Shown here piece after piece: positions 36,527 to 43,853 of a stretch of 64,000 nt of DNA. The DNA is from Thermoanaerobaculia bacterium (GTDB lineage Bacteria; Acidobacteriota; Thermoanaerobaculia; Multivoradales; JAGPDF01), in the NCBI GenBank assembly GCA_963821905.1, contig CAWGFP010000003.1, positions 683 to 64,682 of the forward strand, given 5' to 3'. The notes beneath the pieces are model-generated. The model searched no databases. It worked only from the letters and a program-made list of their open reading frames with translations, and had not been told where the DNA came from. The translations under genes and the position numbers were made by a program. Each line of letters begins with the position of its first letter. The first letter of the stretch is position 1.

Positions 36527-37191
36527 TCATCCCGGGATCGGGTCGACGCGGTCGGCGCCAGCGCCGGGCGGCTCACCGAGGAACTCGACCCACGCTCGCT
36601 TGATGCACGGATAGTGCTTCGCCGCCTCGGCGAGCGAGAGGAACGCCTGGATGTTCTTGTCGAAGCGAGCGCGCAGCGCGGCGTCGGCGATGTCGCCTTC
36701 GACGAGGGCCTTGTGCGCTTGAGCGAGCGAGAACATGTCCGGGTAGATCCGCGCGCCCAGATGCTCGAGCGGCATCCGCAGCGCCCAGAGCCCTCGGTTA
36801 CCGCCTACCATCGACGGTGACGCGCTCAGCAGCAGGCCATGCTTCCCATCGAACGGCTGCGGACGAAAGCGCGAGGTCCAGTCGATCAGGTTCTTGAACA
36901 TCCCCGGCATCGAGCCGTTGTACTCGGGCGACGAGACGATGAAGGCGTCGCTTTCCGAGAGTCGGCGTCGCAGCTCCTCGGCTCCCTTCGGGATACCCTT
37001 GCGCCTTCTCGACGTCTCCGTCGTAGGAGGGAACGTCGAAGTCGCGCATCGACGCATGATCCACCGCCGCTCCGCTCTGCTCGGCCACCCGAGCTGCGAG
37101 TGCGGCGAGCTTTCGATTCAGGGAGTCCGCGCGAAGCGAGGCCGCCGAACACGAGCACCTTGAGCTTGGGCTCCGATTCCGGCTTGAACAT
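36527..37191 (-). CDS. NADPH-dependent FMN reductase (indels)
   Basis: SLRADSLNRKLA, PSYDGD, SPEYNGSMPGMFKNLIDWTSR, SASPSMVGGNRG. Confidence 0.88.
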
Positions 37192-37227
37192 GTTCGGTCC
37201 CCTCATGTCTGCGGCGGGTCGGGCTCA

Positions 37228-38075
37228 TCAGTCTATGTCGCTCGCGCCCCCTCGCGGACGTCGCCGGGTCAACGCCCTCAACGCCGCTAGCACCAGCAGC
37301 GTGCCGCCGAACGTCGCCACGATGGTGGCGCCCGTCGGAAGGTCCCACTTGAACGACAGCCACACTCCGAGCGCCGACACCAGCGCCCCCATGCCCCAGC
37401 CGATGGCCAGCCGTGGCACGAGGCGCTCAGCGAACAGCATCGCGGTGACCGAGGGCACGATCAGGAAGCAGAAGACCAGGAGCACGCCGGCGATCGCCAC
37501 CGACGAGGTCACGACGAAGCCGAACGACATGTAGAAGAGGAAGTCCCACCAGCGAATGTTCAGCCCCTGCCGCTCCGCCTCCGGCTCGTTCATCGAGATA
37601 AGCAGGAATCGCCGGCGGAAGAAGTAGTGGAAGAGGCCGACGAGCGCGTAGAGCACCGCGGTCTTGCCCAGCTCGGGCCAGGTCACCGAGAGGATGTTGC
37701 CGACCAGCATCTCCTTGAGGTGCTCGGTCTCTTGCGTCGCCTTCGACATCACCAGGATGGCGATCGCCGCCGACACCGCGTAGACGATGCCGATGATCGC
37801 CTCCTGCGGCATGCGGGTCTTGCGGTGGACGCGCGACATGGCGAAGATCGCCGCTCCCAGGAAGGTGAAGCCGAGCGAGAAGAGGTAGGGCATTGGAGTG
37901 CAGGTCGTAGCCCGCGAGGTAGCGCCACGGTGGTGCCGAGGGCGGCGATCTGGGCGAGCGAGAGGTCGACGAAGATCACCCCGCGCTCGACGACGTGCAC
38001 GCCGAGGTAGGCGTGGATGCCGGTCAGGATGAGGCTGGCGACGAAGGCCGGCAGCAGGAGCTCGAAGAGCGTCAT
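37228..38075 (-). CDS. Metal (Zn/Mn-type) ABC permease (indels)
   Basis: HAYLGVHVVERGVIFVDLSLAQIAALG, PQEAIIGIVYAVS, LVGNILSV, VTSSVAIAGVLLVF, DLPTGATIV. Confidence 0.88.
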
Positions 38076-38995
38076 GGGGCCGCCCTCGAGCGCGGCGACG
38101 AGAGTGTCCACGTTGGTGTCGAAGAGGGAGAAGTAATCGCGTGATCTGCGGCAATGCCGCCGACCGACGGGTAAAGACGTCAGCATCGTCGCGCCGCGTC
38201 TTCGAGGCGATGTACTTCGGCGTCTTGGTGTCGAAGTAGGGCTCGACCAGGATGAGCTTGATCTTGCGCTCGAGGATCAAGTTGATGGTCGCCAGCGTGT
38301 GGGCGGGCTCGGCGGGATGCCGGGCTTGGGCTCGACATGGCCGACGACGTGAGCCTGAACGCCTCGGCGAAGTTGGGCCAGGAGTCATGGAAGGTCACCA
38401 CCTCGACGCCGGCGTACGGCGCCAGCGTCGCCGCCCACTCCGCCTGCTTGGCGGTCAGCTTGCTCTCGAAGGCCTGCCACGTTGCGGTCGATAGTCCGGC
38501 TTGCCTGCCGGGTCGAGCTGCGCAAGCCGTGCCGCGATGGCGCGGGCGATGACTGCGGCCGTTCTCGGGGTCCGGTCCAGTAGTGCGGATTGCCGTAGGG
38601 ATGGACGTCGCCCATGGCCCGCGTCACCTGAGTCGTCGGCCGGTTGAGGATCTCGCAGCCCGACCGAGGCGTCGAGGTAACCGGGGTTGCCGGGATGGAT
38701 CTTGGCGTTGCGGCTCTGGTCGACGAGCGGCGGCAGGTAGCCGGCCTCGAGCTCGAGACCGGCGACGATGAGCAGATCGGCGCGCGACAGCAAGAGGACG
38801 AAGGACGGCTGGCGTCGACGAAGTGCGGATCCTGGTAGCCCTTGGCGATCGGCGGAGGTCTGACGCGATCGCCGCCGACGGCGTGGCGATCGAGGCGAAG
38901 TCCTGCAGGCTGCTCACCACGTTGAGCTTGGCGTGGGCGGCGCCGGCTAGCGGCGAGCTGACGGCAAGGGCGACGAGGATGGGAGAGAGCTTCAT
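38072..38995 (-). CDS. Metal ABC substrate-binding protein (cluster A-I; indels)
   Basis: QDPHFV, ADLLIVAGLELEAGYLPPL, MGDVHPYGNPHYW, VTFHDSW, VEPKPGIPP. Confidence 0.88.
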
Positions 38996-39004
38996 GACAT
39001 CACC

Positions 39005-40247
39005 TCAGAACGGATGGGCGCCGTGGGCGCCGATCGCAAACAGCAGTTGGAGGAGAAACTCGTTGGCGTCGTCGCCGTCGGCGAAGTGGCGGCGCCGGAA
39101 CTGGCCGCGTAGCTGCGAGAACTCGGTCGGGTTGAAGGTGAGGATCAGGGACTGCCGCGGTGTCGCGCAGCGCGGCGTCGAGCGCCGCTCCGACTCAGTC
39201 GTAACGTCCACCGATCCACCACCGCCTGGCAAGCTGGTAGTCGCCGGGGGAACCAGCCGGTCGCGCTCTGGCGTCGGTCCTCGCTGTCGCGGTGGCTGCG
39301 GAAGTACTCGCCACGCAGCTCGGCGGAGCGATAGGTCGCGGTTTGCAGCGGCTTCCAGCGCAGCATCAGGTCGACGCCCTCGAGCGTCGGTGTCGTCGAG
39401 CGACCCGTTGGGCCCGCGGCCGTAGGAGAGCCCGAGGTCGAGATTGGTGGCCTCGCTGAGATCGCGAAACAGCGCGGAAGTGGGCGTTGTAGGAAAGGTC
39501 GGAACGGGTTTCGGCAGTCCGAAAGCTCCTCGCCGGCGGTGCCGTCGAATGCCTGTAGGGTGAGCTCGGAGAAGGTGTTGCCGGGAGGGGAATCAGTCGC
39601 GCCACTGAAACGCCGTCGCCGATCCAGCCCTCCTCGCCGCCGAGCAGATTGACGATCGGCAGCGGCTTGTCGGCCCACGGCAGCGAATGCGGGTGCAGCG
39701 TGTTGACCTTGCCGAAGCCCCTTTCATCCGTCCGACCTTGACCCAGCAAATCCACGGCAGCGCGGTGAAGGTGACGTAGCCCTCCTCGATCTCGGCGCCC
39801 TCGTCGCCGAAAGCGAGGAAAATGTCGGCGCGGGCATAGGGGTCGATCACCGCCTGCAGGCCGATCTCCGCTTCTTCCAGATTCATCGCCCGCCCGGGGT
39901 CGACGTCGTTGTGACCGCCCACGCCGATGAAATTGCCAATCACCGCCATCGCGGGATTGAAGTAGCTCGACGTCTGGCCGGGCCCTGCGGCGGGCGGCGG
40001 AGGCTGAGGTGGCGGCACGGCGGCGGTTGCAGCGCCGGTTTCGAGCGCCGCCAACCTGGCTTCCAGGGCCCCGAGCTTGGCTTGATAGTCGGCCCGCAGC
40101 GCTTCCAGCTCGGCGCGCACGGCGGCGATGTCCGGCACCGGAACCTGCGCCCATGCCGCGCCTTCGGCGGCGACCGACGCGATGCAGCACACGAGTCCGG
40201 CGAGGGCCCATCGGGCGCTCGACCGGACTCCGGTCCACGGAGAACAT
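39005..40247 (-). CDS. Outer-membrane beta-barrel of metal-uptake operon (indels)
   Basis: Signal peptide + coiled coil; FNPAMAVIG, EAEIGLQAVIDPYARAD, EEGYVTF, FGKVNTLHPH, PTEFSQLRGQ; C-terminus IGAHGAHPF. Confidence 0.8.
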
Positions 40248-40317
40248 GGAACCTCCCCCGCCCGGGTGCGGGCGGGACACTCACGTCATCAGTAGATGCG
40301 CGGCGATGCCGCGCGCG

Positions 40318-40725
40318 TCAGGCCGCGACCGGAGTCGCGGGAGAACCGCGCGGGGAGGAAGGAGCGCCCGAGGCGCAGACGGAGAACGGCGAGTCGACCG
40401 GTGCGCCGGCGGCAAGCGGCTCGTCCACAACGGCGACGAGCGCCGGCGACGACTGCAACGAACCCGCCGATTGGAGCTGGAGGACGCAGTACGTGCAGCG
40501 CTCGCGCTCTTCCGATGCCGCGGCGTCGAAATGCGCCGGCAGGGTCGGGTGAACGGCGTCGGTGAAGATCTCGACCGGCTGGTCGAGCGGCGAGTGCTCC
40601 TGGGGCCTGGAATGGAACTCGAGCAGCAACGGCCCGAGCGCCAGGGTCAGCAGGACCGCCGTCAGGCAGGAGGCCCAGTGCCGCCGCGTCGGCCGGAGAG
40701 CGGTCGAGCTCGTCATCGGTGCCAT
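40318..40725 (-). CDS. DUF2946/CruR-like upstream ORF (hydrophobic N-terminus, His residues, CxxC, C-terminal PRGSP)
   Basis: WASCLTAVLLTLALGPLLL; H residues; CTYC at 40486-40497; RGSP at 40339-40350; ends 70 nt before the barrel gene. Confidence 0.6.
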   Translation of the reverse strand: MAPMTSSTALRPTRRHWASCLTAVLLTLALGPLLLEFHSRPQEHSPLDQPVEIFTDAVHPTLPAHFDAAASEERERCTYCVLQLQSAGSLQSSPALVAVVDEPLAAGAPVDSPFSVCASGAPSSPRGSPATPVAA

Positions 40726-40743
40726 GGTAACAAATCGCGTGGC

Positions 40744-40986
40744 CTAGCCCGCTTCAGATGGGGCTGGCGGGCTCAGCGGCGGGATCGGCTCTTGATGCCG
40801 TTCCCAGTCCCGCAGCTCGGCTTCAGCGCGCTCGGCGGTCAAGCCGTAGAGGTGGCGCAGCTTGGCGAGCAGGTCATCTCGCTGGCCGGCGATACCTTCG
40901 ATGTCCTCGTCGGTGAGCTTGGCCCACCGGAACCTCAGATTGCTCTTGATCTGCTTCCAGTTTCCTTCGATGTATTCCCAATTCAC
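40744..40986 (-). CDS. csbD: CsbD-family stress protein
   Basis: MNWEYIEGNWKQIK..WAKLTDED..IAGQRD.L..KL...YG. Confidence 0.9.
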   Translation of the reverse strand: MNWEYIEGNWKQIKSNLRFRWAKLTDEDIEGIAGQRDDLLAKLRHLYGLTAERAEAELRDWERHQEPIPPLSPPAPSEAG

Positions 40987-41051
40987 CTCAGCCTCCTGAC
41001 TGCGGTCAGGCCGGGTGCATACGAAGCCGGCAGAGCGCGCGGGTTTTCAGC

Positions 41052-41066
41052 GCAAGTGACGTGCCA
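41052..41066 (-). promoter_or_regulatory. Sigma54 promoter of csbD
   Basis: TGGCAC-GTCAC-TTGC, a perfect -24/-12 match. Confidence 0.8.
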
Positions 41067-41098
41067 AGAATGGCGACGACCACTTCAGATGCGACGGC

Positions 41099-42444
41099 TC
41101 ACTCGGAGCCGTATTCGCGCAGCCGGTTATAGAGGGTGCGCAAGCTCACGTCCAACGCTTTGGCGGCCTCCCGCCGGTCGCCAGCGAAGTGCGTCAGAGT
41201 GGCCAGAACCAGGCGCCGCTCGGCGGCAGCGAGCGTCGTGAGGGGGACCGGAAGCGCCGCGGCGGGCTGGTGACCCGACAGATCGGGGGCCAGGTGCGAG
41301 GGATCGATCTCTCCCTCGGCGAGGATGAAGCCACGATGGATCACGTTCTTGAGCTCGCGCACGTTGCCCGGCCAGGCGCAGCGCTGGAGGATACCCAGCG
41401 TCGCCGGCGTGAAGGTCTTGGTGGCGCCTTCCTTGCGGTTGAGCTCGTCGAGGAAGTGATGCGCCAGGCCGGCGATGTCTTCGGCCCGCTCGCGCAGCGG
41501 CGGCAGCGGGATCGGGAACACCTTCAGGCGGTAGAGCAGGTCGTCGCGGAACTTGCCCTCCGCGACGCGCGGCCTCGAGCTCGCGGTTGGTCGCGGCGAT
41601 GATCCGCACGTCGACCTTGACCGGCTTTTCCCCACCGACTCGCGTCACGGCGCCGGCTTCGAGCACGCGCAGCAGCTTGGCCTGGAGCTCGATCGGGATT
41701 TCGCTCACCTCGTCGAGAAATAGCGTGCCGCCGTCGGCGCGCTCGAAAAAGCCGTGGTGGAGCCGATCGGCGCCGGTGAAGCTGCCGCGCTCGTGGCCGA
41801 ACAGCTCGCTCTCGATCAAAGTGCGGAGTGAGCGCGCCGCAGTTCACCACCTGGTAAGGACTGGCGGCCCGGCGGCTGAGTTTGTGCACGCTCTCCGCCA
41901 CCAGCTCCTTGCCCGTGCCGCTCTCGCCAGTGATCAGCACGGTGGCGCTCGAGGGCGCCACACGGCTGACCATCTCGTAAACCCTCTCCATCGCCGGCGA
42001 TCCACCCACCAACGGGCCGAAGCGGCCAGACTCACGCGCCTGCCGGCGCAACTCGCTCAGCCGGGGCCGCAGCCCCCGCGAGCGCGACAGGTTGGCGAGC
42101 ATCAACTTGAGTCGCGCGGTGTCGACCGGCTTGGTGAGGTAGTCGGTGGCGCCGTGGCGCAGCGCCTCGACGGCGGTGTCGACGCTGGCGTGGCCGGTGA
42201 TCACCACGATCTCCACGCGATCGGTCTGCCCCTGAAGCTCCGCAATGAGGTCGAATCCGGTGCCGTCCGGCAGGATCAGATCGAGCAGAACGACGTCGGG
42301 AGGCTGGGCCACCAGGCGGGCCCGCGCCGCGGCCACGGTGGTGGCCGTCTCGACCGCGAAACCCTCGTCGGCAACCAGCTCAGCCAGCGCTTTGAGCGAG
42401 TTCTTGTCGTCCTCGACGACCAGCGCGTGCAGCAAGCCGGTCAT
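41099..42444 (-). CDS. NtrC-family sigma54-dependent response regulator (indels)
   Basis: REC domain, [43 protein letters not shown], Fis-type HTH. Confidence 0.92.
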
Positions 42445-43853
42445 CCCTGCCCGAGCGCCGGCAGCCGCAGCCGGAACTCGCTGCCGCGGCCCGGCCGGTT
42501 CTCGACGCTGATCTCACCGCCGTGGGCCTCGACGATCGAGCGCGCCAGGTAGAGGCCGATACCGGTGCCGGTGGTCTTGGTGGTGTAGTGCATGTCGAAG
42601 ATCCGCTGCCGCTCTTCCTCCGGAATCCCCGGACCGGTGTCGATGATCCGCACTTCGGCCTCCTGAGGAAGCGCCTCGAGAATCATTTCCAGCTCGCCGC
42701 CGTCGGACATCGCCTCGAGACCGTTGAGGGCGACGTTGAGGATGGCTTGCTTGAGGCGGTCGCGCTGGCCGGCGATGCGCACCGCGCTGCCCGGGAGCTG
42801 CGCCTCCAGGGCGACGTGCTGCAGACGCGCCTGCGGCTGCAAGAGCCGCTCGATTTCCTGCAGCGTGGCCCGGACGTCGAACTCCTCGCGTCCGCTGCCC
42901 GCCGGAGTGGTGTCGGCGAGCAGGCCGAGGAGCGAGCGGTCGAGACGATCGAGCTCCTCGCGCAGCACGTCGAGATATCCCTGGGTCTTCTCGGCCTCCG
43001 CCGCGCCCTCACCCTTGCGCAGGGCGACCTGCAGCCGATCGAGATTCAGCACCATGGCGTTGAGCGGTGCTTTGATCTCGTGCGTTACGGCTCGGTAGAC
43101 CCGGCTCAGGGCGCGGAGCTGGCTGGCGAGCAGCAAGTCGGTCTCCAGCGCGTCGAGCGCTGTCCGTTCGCGGAGCAGATAGAGGAGACCCTGGTGCTCT
43201 TCCTCCGCCAAAGGGTACATCCGGCAGTGCACCGCCAGCGGCTGTACCGATCCCGGCACATCGAAATCGAACTGCGCCGGTTGATTCGGTGCACCGCGAT
43301 CGAGGAGCGGGAGGATCTCGGGCCAGCGCCGCTGCAACTCCGTGAGATCCGCGCAGCCCAGCAGCTCGCAGGCCCGCGGGCTGGCAAATTCCAGCTGGCG
43401 AGAGGGATGGACGAGCAGCACGCCAACATCCACCAGACGCGACAAAGTATGGAGACGCTGGCGAGCTTGCGCTCCTCGCTCGCGCTCCATGTTGAGCTCC
43501 TGCCCCACCCTCGCCGCGACCTCGACCGCGGCGGCGAACTCGTCTTTGACCCGGGACGGCGCCGGCGCCTGGCCGGCGAGCGCATCCTGCAGCAGCGCAG
43601 TGACGTCACGGCCGCGTCGCACCAACAGCACGTATAGCGCCACAGCGAGGGCTCCGGCCGCGGCGAGAGCCGCCAGGGCACCCGCGCCGAGGCGGCGCAT
43701 CGCGTCGTCGTGGACCGCGGACTCGTCCCGCGTCACGTCGATCGCGGCGAGCCTCGCTGCACGAATCTCCCCCCGTTGCCAGAAGGCAAAACCGCCCACC
43801 AGGGCGGCGTAGATCAAGCAGACGGCGACTATGTTCCGCGTCAAGGATCGCAT
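42441..43853 (-). CDS. Sensor histidine kinase (NtrB-like)
   Basis: [38 protein letters not shown]. Confidence 0.9.

Follow-up and report, generated by a model that had tools for sequence, protein, structure and literature searches.

Does the short open reading frame (ORF) that precedes a porin and metal-importer operon in a Thermoanaerobaculia bacterium (Acidobacteriota) encode a metal-sensing arrest peptide, and if so, can it arrest the ribosome with a serine at a position where its relatives carry a proline? The ORF, here called the leader, lies on the minus strand of a 64,000-nt stretch of contig CAWGFP010000003.1 (the window, to which all coordinates refer). An initial annotation, made from the sequence alone, had read it as a CruR/CutF-like upstream ORF that carries RGSP, a variant of a known arrest motif, ahead of a metal-uptake operon. 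We consider the family assignment and the role of the ORF as a regulatory leader highly probable, and RGSP as a working arrest motif unlikely. Already in print are CruR (2022; PMC9426467), CutF (2021–2025) and RAPP/RGPP leaders upstream of diverse genes (2025; PMC12992588); statements on these systems here draw on main-text passages of the cited papers. Against this background the leader adds one further member to a known family, and no new principle. Three observations go beyond the published text covered by those passages: the link of such leaders to a porin and a ZnuA-type ATP-binding cassette (ABC) importer in several phyla, a family preference for CCU at the proline codon of the peptidyl-tRNA site (P-site), and two natural Pro-to-Ser changes at that codon.

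Family membership of the leader ORF

The leader and its sequence features are as follows.

40318..40725, minus strand: leader ORF, putative CruR/CutF-family (DUF2946-like) arrest-peptide gene, 135 aa (ORF list)
40618..40680, minus strand: hydrophobic N-terminal segment, residues 16–36, after a basic RPTRRH stretch (hydropathy scan)
40531..40551, minus strand: H-P-x-x-P-x-H (His59, His65), 11 residues ahead of CxxC (alignment)
40486..40497, minus strand: CTYC (Cys77, Cys80; residues 77–80), the CxxC metal-binding motif of the family (alignment)
40339..40350, minus strand: CGC GGT TCT CCC, R-G-S-P, residues 126–129, where the family carries its R-[A/G/S]-P-P arrest motif (translation)

The DUF2946/CruR family is defined by CXXC and RAPP motifs 45 residues apart (45 ± 1–2) together with an export signal, and in CruR both the motifs and their spacing bear on how copper controls the downstream gene (Roy et al. 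2022, PMC9426467). The elements that the initial annotation had listed are all present in the ORF list, the translation and the hydropathy profile: an export-like N-terminus, His residues (16, 38, 44, 59 and 65), CTYC, and RGSP near a C-terminus that reads ...SSPRGSPATPVAA* on the minus strand. RGSP is followed by six codons and then TGA, the codon of its serine (Ser128) is TCT at 40342–40344, and 45 residues separate CxxC from Arg126. The Kyte-Doolittle mean is 1.6–1.9 across residues 16–37, with 19-residue means of up to 1.88, and the succession of a basic stretch and about 20 hydrophobic residues is consistent with a predicted export signal or signal anchor, possibly of the Nin-Cout type.

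The alignments indicate that the ORF descends from the CruR/CutF (DUF2946) family, of which it is a true if divergent member. Pfam DUF2946 (PF11162) aligns with the leader essentially end to end (profile positions 2–117 of 117; E 0.0033, 18.6 bits), the same model is matched at E ≤ 0.01 by 8 of the 23 clade members, the best of them at 3.8e-07, and one homologue, 56% identical, bears a precomputed PF11162 label; on these grounds we place the leader on a divergent branch of the family, which upholds the CruR/CutF-like claim together with CxxC, the arrest-type C-terminus and the 45-residue spacing. Seven close homologues at 52–85% identity (identities from alignment), the two nearest at 85% and 81%, came from a word-indexed search of 5.8 billion proteins. 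Matches to the leader were found in 15 of 41 genomes (40 related genomes and its own), and the set of relatives' loci used below comprises 15 loci from 14 related genomes. With a family profile of 23 sequences, 443 proteins were recovered at E ≤ 0.001 from 1.84 billion representatives; the best 150 of them were parsed for motifs, 148 being complete through the motif and two ending before it.

His59, His65, Cys77, Cys80, Arg126 and Pro129 are invariant in all 23 aligned sequences, and the stretch between CxxC and Arg is not conserved in the same alignment. The CxxC-to-Arg gap is 44 residues in 14 of the 15 relatives' loci and 45 in the remaining one; among the representatives it is 44 in 125 of 147 and 43–45 in 144 of 147. 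Searches of assembled contigs by leader alignment gave no confirmed relative among 597 pattern matches in metagenome contigs and 220 in genome contigs, and a degenerate DNA pattern for P-S-S-P-R-G-x-P-A hit 119 metagenome stretches, with CxxC at the family spacing in none of the 80 loci fetched. Two points speak against the assignment: the DUF2946 score lies below the curated Pfam cut-off (23.7 bits), and the leader is not the first gene on its strand, a CsbD-like gene standing 18 nt upstream, while DUF2946 genes head their operons in Roy et al. (PMC9426467).

The downstream operon

The gene string that the leader precedes was reconstructed by frameshift-aware alignment to the intact proteins of a relative, G002.

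39005..40247, minus strand: gene for a porin-like outer-membrane barrel that has an N-terminal coiled coil and ends in ...GAHGAHPF, 8 frameshifts (58% identity to the G002 homologue)
38070..38995, minus strand: gene for a ZnuA-like periplasmic metal-binding protein, approximate ends, 13 frameshifts (71% identical to its G002 homologue)
37228..38075, minus strand: ABC-3 (ZnuB/AztB-like) permease gene, 2 frameshifts, start approximate (Pfam ABC-3 7.6e-35; 80% identity to the G002 homologue)

Pfam matches and the G002 alignments thus bear out the initial reading of a leader immediately followed by a non-TonB barrel gene, a gene for a ZnuA-like binding protein and an ABC-3 permease gene. The barrel protein itself matched no Pfam or NCBIfam family in profile scans. 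Its G002 homologue is modelled as a helix (residues 41–74) followed by 16 strands (mean predicted local distance difference test score 59, about 70–80 in much of the barrel), and the best fold matches of the model are the phosphate porins OprP and OprO, Omp32 and DcaP, a coiled-coil channel (template modelling scores 0.43–0.54); the product is therefore predicted, at low-to-moderate model confidence, to be a 16-strand porin-like barrel. The N-terminal coiled coil gives it a DcaP-like architecture. Barrel proteins of this type end in a His-rich strand ahead of the terminal aromatic residue (GAHGAHPF at 39005–39030, minus strand, and GAHSAHKF, GAHAAHKF and GPHKHDKY elsewhere), from which a metal site at the periplasmic rim of the barrel is conceivable.

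The G002 homologue of the binding protein matches Pfam ZnuA at 1.3e-53. The nearest solved structures of the binding protein are zinc ZnuA proteins, at E values of 2.5e-23 to 1.7e-20, with manganese binders at about 1e-17. Stretches of DPH, NPH-x-W and FH-x-SW, which presumably hold the zinc ligands, align between the binding protein and the solved ZnuA proteins and also occur in the window gene. No ABC ATPase gene adjoins the ZnuA-like and ZnuB-like genes (36527–38075, minus strand), the next gene being an FMN (flavin mononucleotide) reductase; likewise, the ORF lists of relatives hold no further same-strand ORF closely after the permease.

The barrel family has at least 477 relatives, the best 80 of which are mostly from Acidobacteriota, with Planctomycetota, Myxococcota and others. 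The check for motif conservation at homologous barrels, which the initial annotation had proposed, was run on these 80 loci and found a CxxC...R-x-P-P leader at 51. Barrel, binding protein and permease stand together in 55 of the 69 loci with at least 1800 nt downstream, and the leader is present in 41 of these 55 complete operons; on the other side, 14 of the 55 have no detectable leader, which counts against a fixed pairing of leader and operon. The leader type is also found in other settings: a context could be assigned in 14 of the 15 relatives' loci, where it stands directly upstream of the barrel in 7, of TonB-dependent receptors in 4, of OEP, HlyD and RND (resistance-nodulation-division) efflux genes in 2, and of an HflK-like gene in 1. 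A description of a DUF2946 or arrest-peptide link to ZnuA was not found in the literature covered, from which the figures and supplements of Roy et al. and Fujiwara et al. stand apart, and the main-text passages of the family papers mention neither a porin plus ZnuA-type context nor an Acidobacteriota host. The porin and ZnuA link suggests that metal sensing by arrest peptides also governs high-affinity import, perhaps of zinc.

The arrest motif and the Ser128 codon

As assembled, the leader departs from strict R-[A/G/S]-P-P: Arg and the last Pro are in place, and the third residue is Ser. Position 128 is Pro in all 22 other aligned sequences and in 148 of 148 complete representatives. The seven close homologues carry RGPP (2, the 85% and 81% identical ones) or RAPP (5), and the 15 relatives' loci RGPP (8), RAPP (6) or RSPP (1). 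R-[A/G/S]-P-P stands at the end of 148 of the best 150 representatives, 145 of them by direct parse, and none has Ser at the third position; two of the 148 were mis-parsed and have RAPP nearer the end, and one has RGPP and lacks CxxC at the scanned spacing. In the 50 leaders upstream of homologous barrels the motif is RAPP (30), RSPP (11), RGPP (8) or, once, RASP. In all, R-[A/G/S]-P-P is present in all but one of about 218 relatives examined, so that Ser occurs only in the leader (RGSP) and in one soil metagenome-assembled genome (RASP). The latter (L181, a curated short-read soil Acidobacteria genome) has a leader that ends ...FPCAISPRASPAL* with the Ser codon TCT where relatives have CCT, and an apparently full-length barrel gene downstream. 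Five residues upstream, its conserved tail carries a second C>T change relative to its relatives, which turns Arg into Cys. Both Ser cases use TCT, which is one C>T step from CCT.

Published mutagenesis bears directly on this residue. In ApcA and ApdA all 19 replacements of the corresponding Pro abolished arrest, with raised read-through, and in ApdP all but Gly did so, Gly (P133G, giving RAGP) keeping partial arrest; a toeprint of CruR places the third motif codon in the P-site at arrest (PMC12992588). This mutagenesis, and the uniqueness of RGSP among the relatives, make a working RGSP arrest motif unlikely by analogy, and with Ser in none of the 7 close homologues, 15 relatives' loci or 148 representatives we do not retain the suggestion of a new working variant. 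The motif is hence not intact as assembled, and the mechanism set out below may not run in this organism, which counts against it. If the serine is real, the likeliest consequence is an allele that cripples arrest and leaves the operon poorly translated, a reading that we hold at somewhat under an even chance.

The other explanation is that RGSP is an assembly error only, the true sequence being RGPP and the leader an ordinary working family member, and we judge error and real allele to be about evenly balanced; this is a judgement and not a result. The assembly is evidently faulty nearby. Twenty-three frameshifts without an in-frame stop lie in the 3 kb downstream, the nearest at about 40218, about 125 nt from the codon; the genome is 55% complete by markers (4.2 Mb in 16 contigs), with rpoB split between two frames. 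A short-read contig from another sample stops aligning at 39585 and 39720, beside inferred frameshifts at about 39584 and 39724, and two short-read contigs differ from the assembly at 2 of 287 bases in the frameshift zone. Moreover, Pro128 is otherwise invariant, and the leader differs from both of its nearest homologues by three Pro-to-Ser changes (residues 93, 116 and 128). Set against an error are the facts that all demonstrable errors are indels, of which the 408-nt leader has none, that independent contigs from other samples match 40642–40988 without a difference, and that a second natural R-A-S-P, again with TCT, stands in the curated L181 genome. Alignment of four public sequencing runs gave, among the pieces listed, none over 40320–40390, so the Ser codon is uncovered by them. 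Of the six runs listed, four have small shares (0.06–0.10), and none is on record as RNA.

The 23 single-base frameshifts, at 37880–40220, lie mostly outside homopolymers and comprise 16 extra and 7 missing bases. An NtrC-like gene at 41099–42444 is also split, over three ORFs. We take the frameshifts for assembly indels and not for decay, since the three genes lack in-frame stops and keep 58%, 71% and 80% identity to the G002 proteins; a decayed pseudogene operon is ruled out by the same two observations and by the frame-split rpoB. Any single-base feature in this assembly is suspect, and polishing is needed.

Predicted RNA structure and proposed regulatory mechanism

The intergenic region and the end of the leader hold the following elements.

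40298..40314, minus strand: intergenic hairpin 1, 7 bp (fold, -12.9 kcal/mol)
40257..40276, minus strand: intergenic hairpin 2, 8 bp, directly 5′ of the Shine-Dalgarno (SD) site (fold, -16.5 kcal/mol)
40245..40256, minus strand: GGAGG (40252–40256) and ATG (40245–40247) of the barrel gene (sequence)
40354..40358, minus strand: CCUCC, predicted anti-SD partner of the barrel GGAGG (minimum-energy fold)
40323..40340, minus strand: small hairpin CCGCGAC-UCCG-GUCGCGG in the last leader codons (minimum-energy fold)

Both intergenic hairpins fold as the initial annotation had described them. Its further statement, that the second abuts the GGAGG ribosome-binding site (RBS) of the barrel gene, stands for the hairpin, which lies directly 5′, and needs amending for GGAGG, which is itself paired with CCUCC at 40354–40358 in the predicted fold. 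The gap from leader to barrel is 70 nt (26 C and 26 G) and almost fully paired in that fold. Leader tail and spacer together (131 nt) reach -75 kcal/mol (z = -4.1), and none of 200 shuffles was as stable. CCUCC belongs to Ser-Ser-Pro codons, 4–8 nt ahead of the Arg codon, and pairs with GGAGG in both the minimum-energy structure and the ensemble; the neighbouring CCGCGCGG is predicted to pair with sequence just after the leader stop codon. Within -9 to +21 around the Arg codon GGAGG finds 62% of its pairing probability, and the CCUCC bases are the top-ranked positions at 0.12 each.

Similar pairing is predicted in relatives. In the 15 loci folded, a set that includes the window locus and leaves out one relative (L018) with an unclear downstream start, the minimum-energy RBS partner lies within -21 to +30 nt of the Arg codon in 12; of the other three, one places it partly there and two elsewhere. 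Across 50 barrel loci, a 52-nt window at the arrest site takes 49% of the pairing probability, the 129 nt upstream of it 28% and the spacer 12%, so that pairing in the arrest-site window has about four times the per-base density found elsewhere. In three loci of one genus (L014, L020 and L023) the leader stop codon and the next bases (UGAACGGUU) pair with downstream AACCGUUCA around a conserved GC hairpin, and a fourth locus of the same genus (L017) has a diverged pairing, UGAACGGUA with ACCGUUC, around a different inner hairpin. By these models, a ribosome that reaches the stop codon or stalls before it would open the stop-codon helix.

From these predictions a switch can be outlined. The leader peptide would be translated, its hydrophobic N-terminus targeting it for export, and in a working family member R-[A/G/S]-P-P would halt the ribosome, the motif's third codon then occupying the P-site and its fourth the aminoacyl-tRNA site (A-site). 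In free mRNA the GGAGG of the porin-like gene would be sequestered by CCUCC; a ribosome with codon 128 in the P-site would cover CCUCC and the neighbouring helix and so free the RBS, after which porin, ZnuA-like protein and permease could be translated. At 45–66 residues from the arrest point, CxxC (with H-x5-H in this clade) would lie just outside the exit tunnel at arrest, where metal binding could release the arrest and turn the operon off, as in CruR. Because the operon is one for uptake, this sign of regulation, with arrest as ON and metal as OFF, is the likeliest by analogy. If Ser128 is real, the switch would sit in its no-arrest state and the operon would be poorly translated.

We give the unmasking of the barrel RBS by a stalled ribosome about the same chance of being right as of being wrong, and several findings tell against it. 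The model is one of thermodynamic prediction; more than half of the pairing falls in the arrest-site window in only 26 of the 50 barrel loci, and within a strict ribosome footprint in 16 of 50; only 5 of 15 loci have their top anti-SD site close to the arrest codons in a simple duplex scan; and P-site CCT goes with no stronger pairing there than is seen in the other loci (means about 0.32 and 0.29). RBS pairing near the arrest codons is thus, in the models, a tendency and not a rule, and no anti-SD at the motif is universal. In place of unmasking, the stalled ribosome could keep Rho from terminating transcription in the spacer, a mechanism that has been shown for CruR, the founding member (PMC9426467), and that the longer spacers of many relatives (97–151 nt) would suit. 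The leader's spacer argues the other way, having 70 nt against 162 in CruR, as much C as G, and almost full pairing, which would make it a poor Rho loading site; in addition, the predicted fold hides the RBS in a pairing with sequence that the stalled ribosome would cover, as in CutF (10.1101/2022.11.11.516240). The two routes are mutually compatible, and termination instead of unmasking strikes us as unlikely here.

The P-site proline codon

The codon at which Ser128 arises shows a bias of its own. CCT encodes the P-site Pro in 8 of 14 relatives' loci, compared with 11 of 170 (6.5%) other Pro codons of the same ORFs, and in 22 of 49 barrel-linked leaders, compared with 12.8% in the barrel genes (odds ratio 5.6). 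CCT likewise appears in 17 of 37 clusters at 50% identity, and the preference persists in high-GC genomes (12 of 26 versus 7.6%). An anti-SD effect was considered as its source and rejected on the similar pairing of CCT and non-CCT loci given above; a tRNA- or codon-specific contribution to arrest is possible.

There remains the proposal that RGSP is real and still stalls the ribosome as a SecM-like motif of the form R-x-small-P, which would make it a new working arrest motif. SecM does stall on RAGP and ApdP P133G keeps partial arrest (PMC12992588), the natural RASP of L181 stands ahead of an apparently intact barrel gene, and the U of TCT keeps a U-G pair with the stop-codon G in the predicted fold. 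We nevertheless rate this proposal as quite improbable: Ser at this position abolished arrest in three of three tested peptides (PMC12992588), it is absent from the 7 close homologues, the 15 relatives' loci and the 148 representatives, both Ser cases use the rare TCT expected of recent C>T changes and not of a maintained state, and L181 carries its second C>T change within the conserved tail. Least probable of all, with hardly any weight from us, is a product whose main role is to bind metal in the periplasm after export, as a chaperone or buffer that serves the porin/ZnuA system, and not to regulate, since its export-type N-terminus, Cys and His residues and tight linkage to transport genes are set against a pattern in which the sole invariants beyond Cys and His are Arg and Pro, near the stop at a fixed distance from CxxC with an unconserved region in between, against the strong avoidance of RAPP/RGPP in ordinary proteins (PMC12992588), and against the undetectability of CruR and CutF as proteins in vivo (PMC9426467; 10.1101/2022.11.11.516240).

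Which metal

Zinc is the leading candidate for the metal that the leader would sense, a tentative choice to which we give clearly less than an even chance; the ZnuA-like partner points to it, as does the H-x5-H...CxxC arrangement of the clade, in which H-x5-H and CxxC form a possible Cys2His2 site. Among family representatives close to the leader, 139 of 147 have H-x5-H, in 129 of those 11 residues ahead of CxxC, and across phyla the His pair occurs in just 15 of 50 barrel-linked leaders. H-x5-H therefore appears, by sequence, to mark a clade and does not track the barrel operon context.

Taken jointly, and as a speculation that we think improbable as a whole, the large H-x5-H clade may sense zinc rather than copper and gate a previously undescribed module for uptake (a porin with a coiled coil, a ZnuA-like binding protein and a permease of the ZnuB type, no ATPase gene adjoining) in Acidobacteriota, Planctomycetota and other phyla, through an RBS freed from its anti-SD under a stalled ribosome; R-x-S-P would then be a recurrent natural allele that turns the switch down, and the P-site CCU preference would reflect a codon- or tRNA-specific contribution to arrest.

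Upstream neighbourhood and transcription

Two features lie upstream of the leader.

40744..40986, minus strand: CsbD-like small gene, 18 nt upstream of the leader (Pfam CsbD 1.5e-06, NCBIfam PRK10428 7.4e-19, both below cut-off)
41052..41066, minus strand: match TGGCAC-N5-TTGC of the sigma-54 -24/-12 type, between an NtrC-like regulator gene and the CsbD-like gene

The CsbD-like gene and the leader may share a transcript. TGGCAC-N5-TTGC, which we take to be the sigma-54 -24/-12 promoter consensus, has 42 matches in the window, and the one at 41052–41066 is the only case with no mismatch. It lies just after NtrC-like response-regulator and histidine-kinase genes (41099–43853, minus strand) and about 65 nt before the CsbD-like gene, and the string from this site on may form one sigma-54 transcription unit. 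Scans for sigma-70-type promoters and intrinsic terminators gave none in 40100–41300, and a scan for known RNA families over 40150–41150 gave nothing relevant, with two chance-level matches (E 0.45 and 0.65). This upstream neighbourhood is not common to relatives: 95 related loci showed no CsbD-like or NtrC-like match and two weak kinase matches.

Comparison with known systems

Of the characterized systems, CruR (Bp2923) of Bordetella pertussis (Roy et al. 2022, PMC9426467) resembles the leader as a small product, exported in CruR and predicted to be so here, with CxxC and, 45 residues on, an R-x-P-P-type site near the C-terminus. Both precede an outer-membrane uptake protein, and the logic of arrest as ON and metal as OFF is likely shared. 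The differences are several. CruR has R-x-P-P where the leader has RGSP as assembled, and lacks the leader's extra H-x5-H; its downstream gene encodes a TonB-dependent transporter, whereas the leader stands before a porin-like barrel and a ZnuA-like ABC importer. CruR acts through a 162-nt spacer and Rho termination, in contrast to the 70-nt structured spacer predicted to mask the RBS here. In addition, the family that Roy et al. describe is mostly proteobacterial, unlike the present Acidobacteriota host, and only the leader is preceded by a CsbD-like gene.

CutF of Rhodobacter capsulatus (Ozturk et al. 2021, 2023, 2025 preprint) is DUF2946-like and exported, as is predicted for the leader, and its RNA offers a precedent for the predicted design of the leader: a stem-loop that masks the Shine-Dalgarno sequence of cutO starts in the last cutF codons and is opened by a stalled ribosome. 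CutF carries CxxxC and an EF-P-sensitive PPP motif, unlike the CxxC and R-x-P-P-type motif of the leader. In CutF, copper induces stalling and so turns a detoxifying oxidase on, whereas the target of the leader is an uptake system, for which the opposite sign is expected.

ApdA, ApdP, ApcA and SecM (RAGP), as described by Fujiwara et al. (2025, PMC12992588), share with the leader the core of an irreplaceable Arg, a small second residue and a Pro codon in the A-site, and they have an N-terminal localisation signal, of which the leader has a predicted counterpart. They monitor protein export (sec/yidC genes) and have no metal site, in contrast to the CxxC metal motif of the leader. In all, the leader is of the CruR family by descent and architecture, CutF-like in RNA design, and RAPP/RGPP-like in core chemistry.

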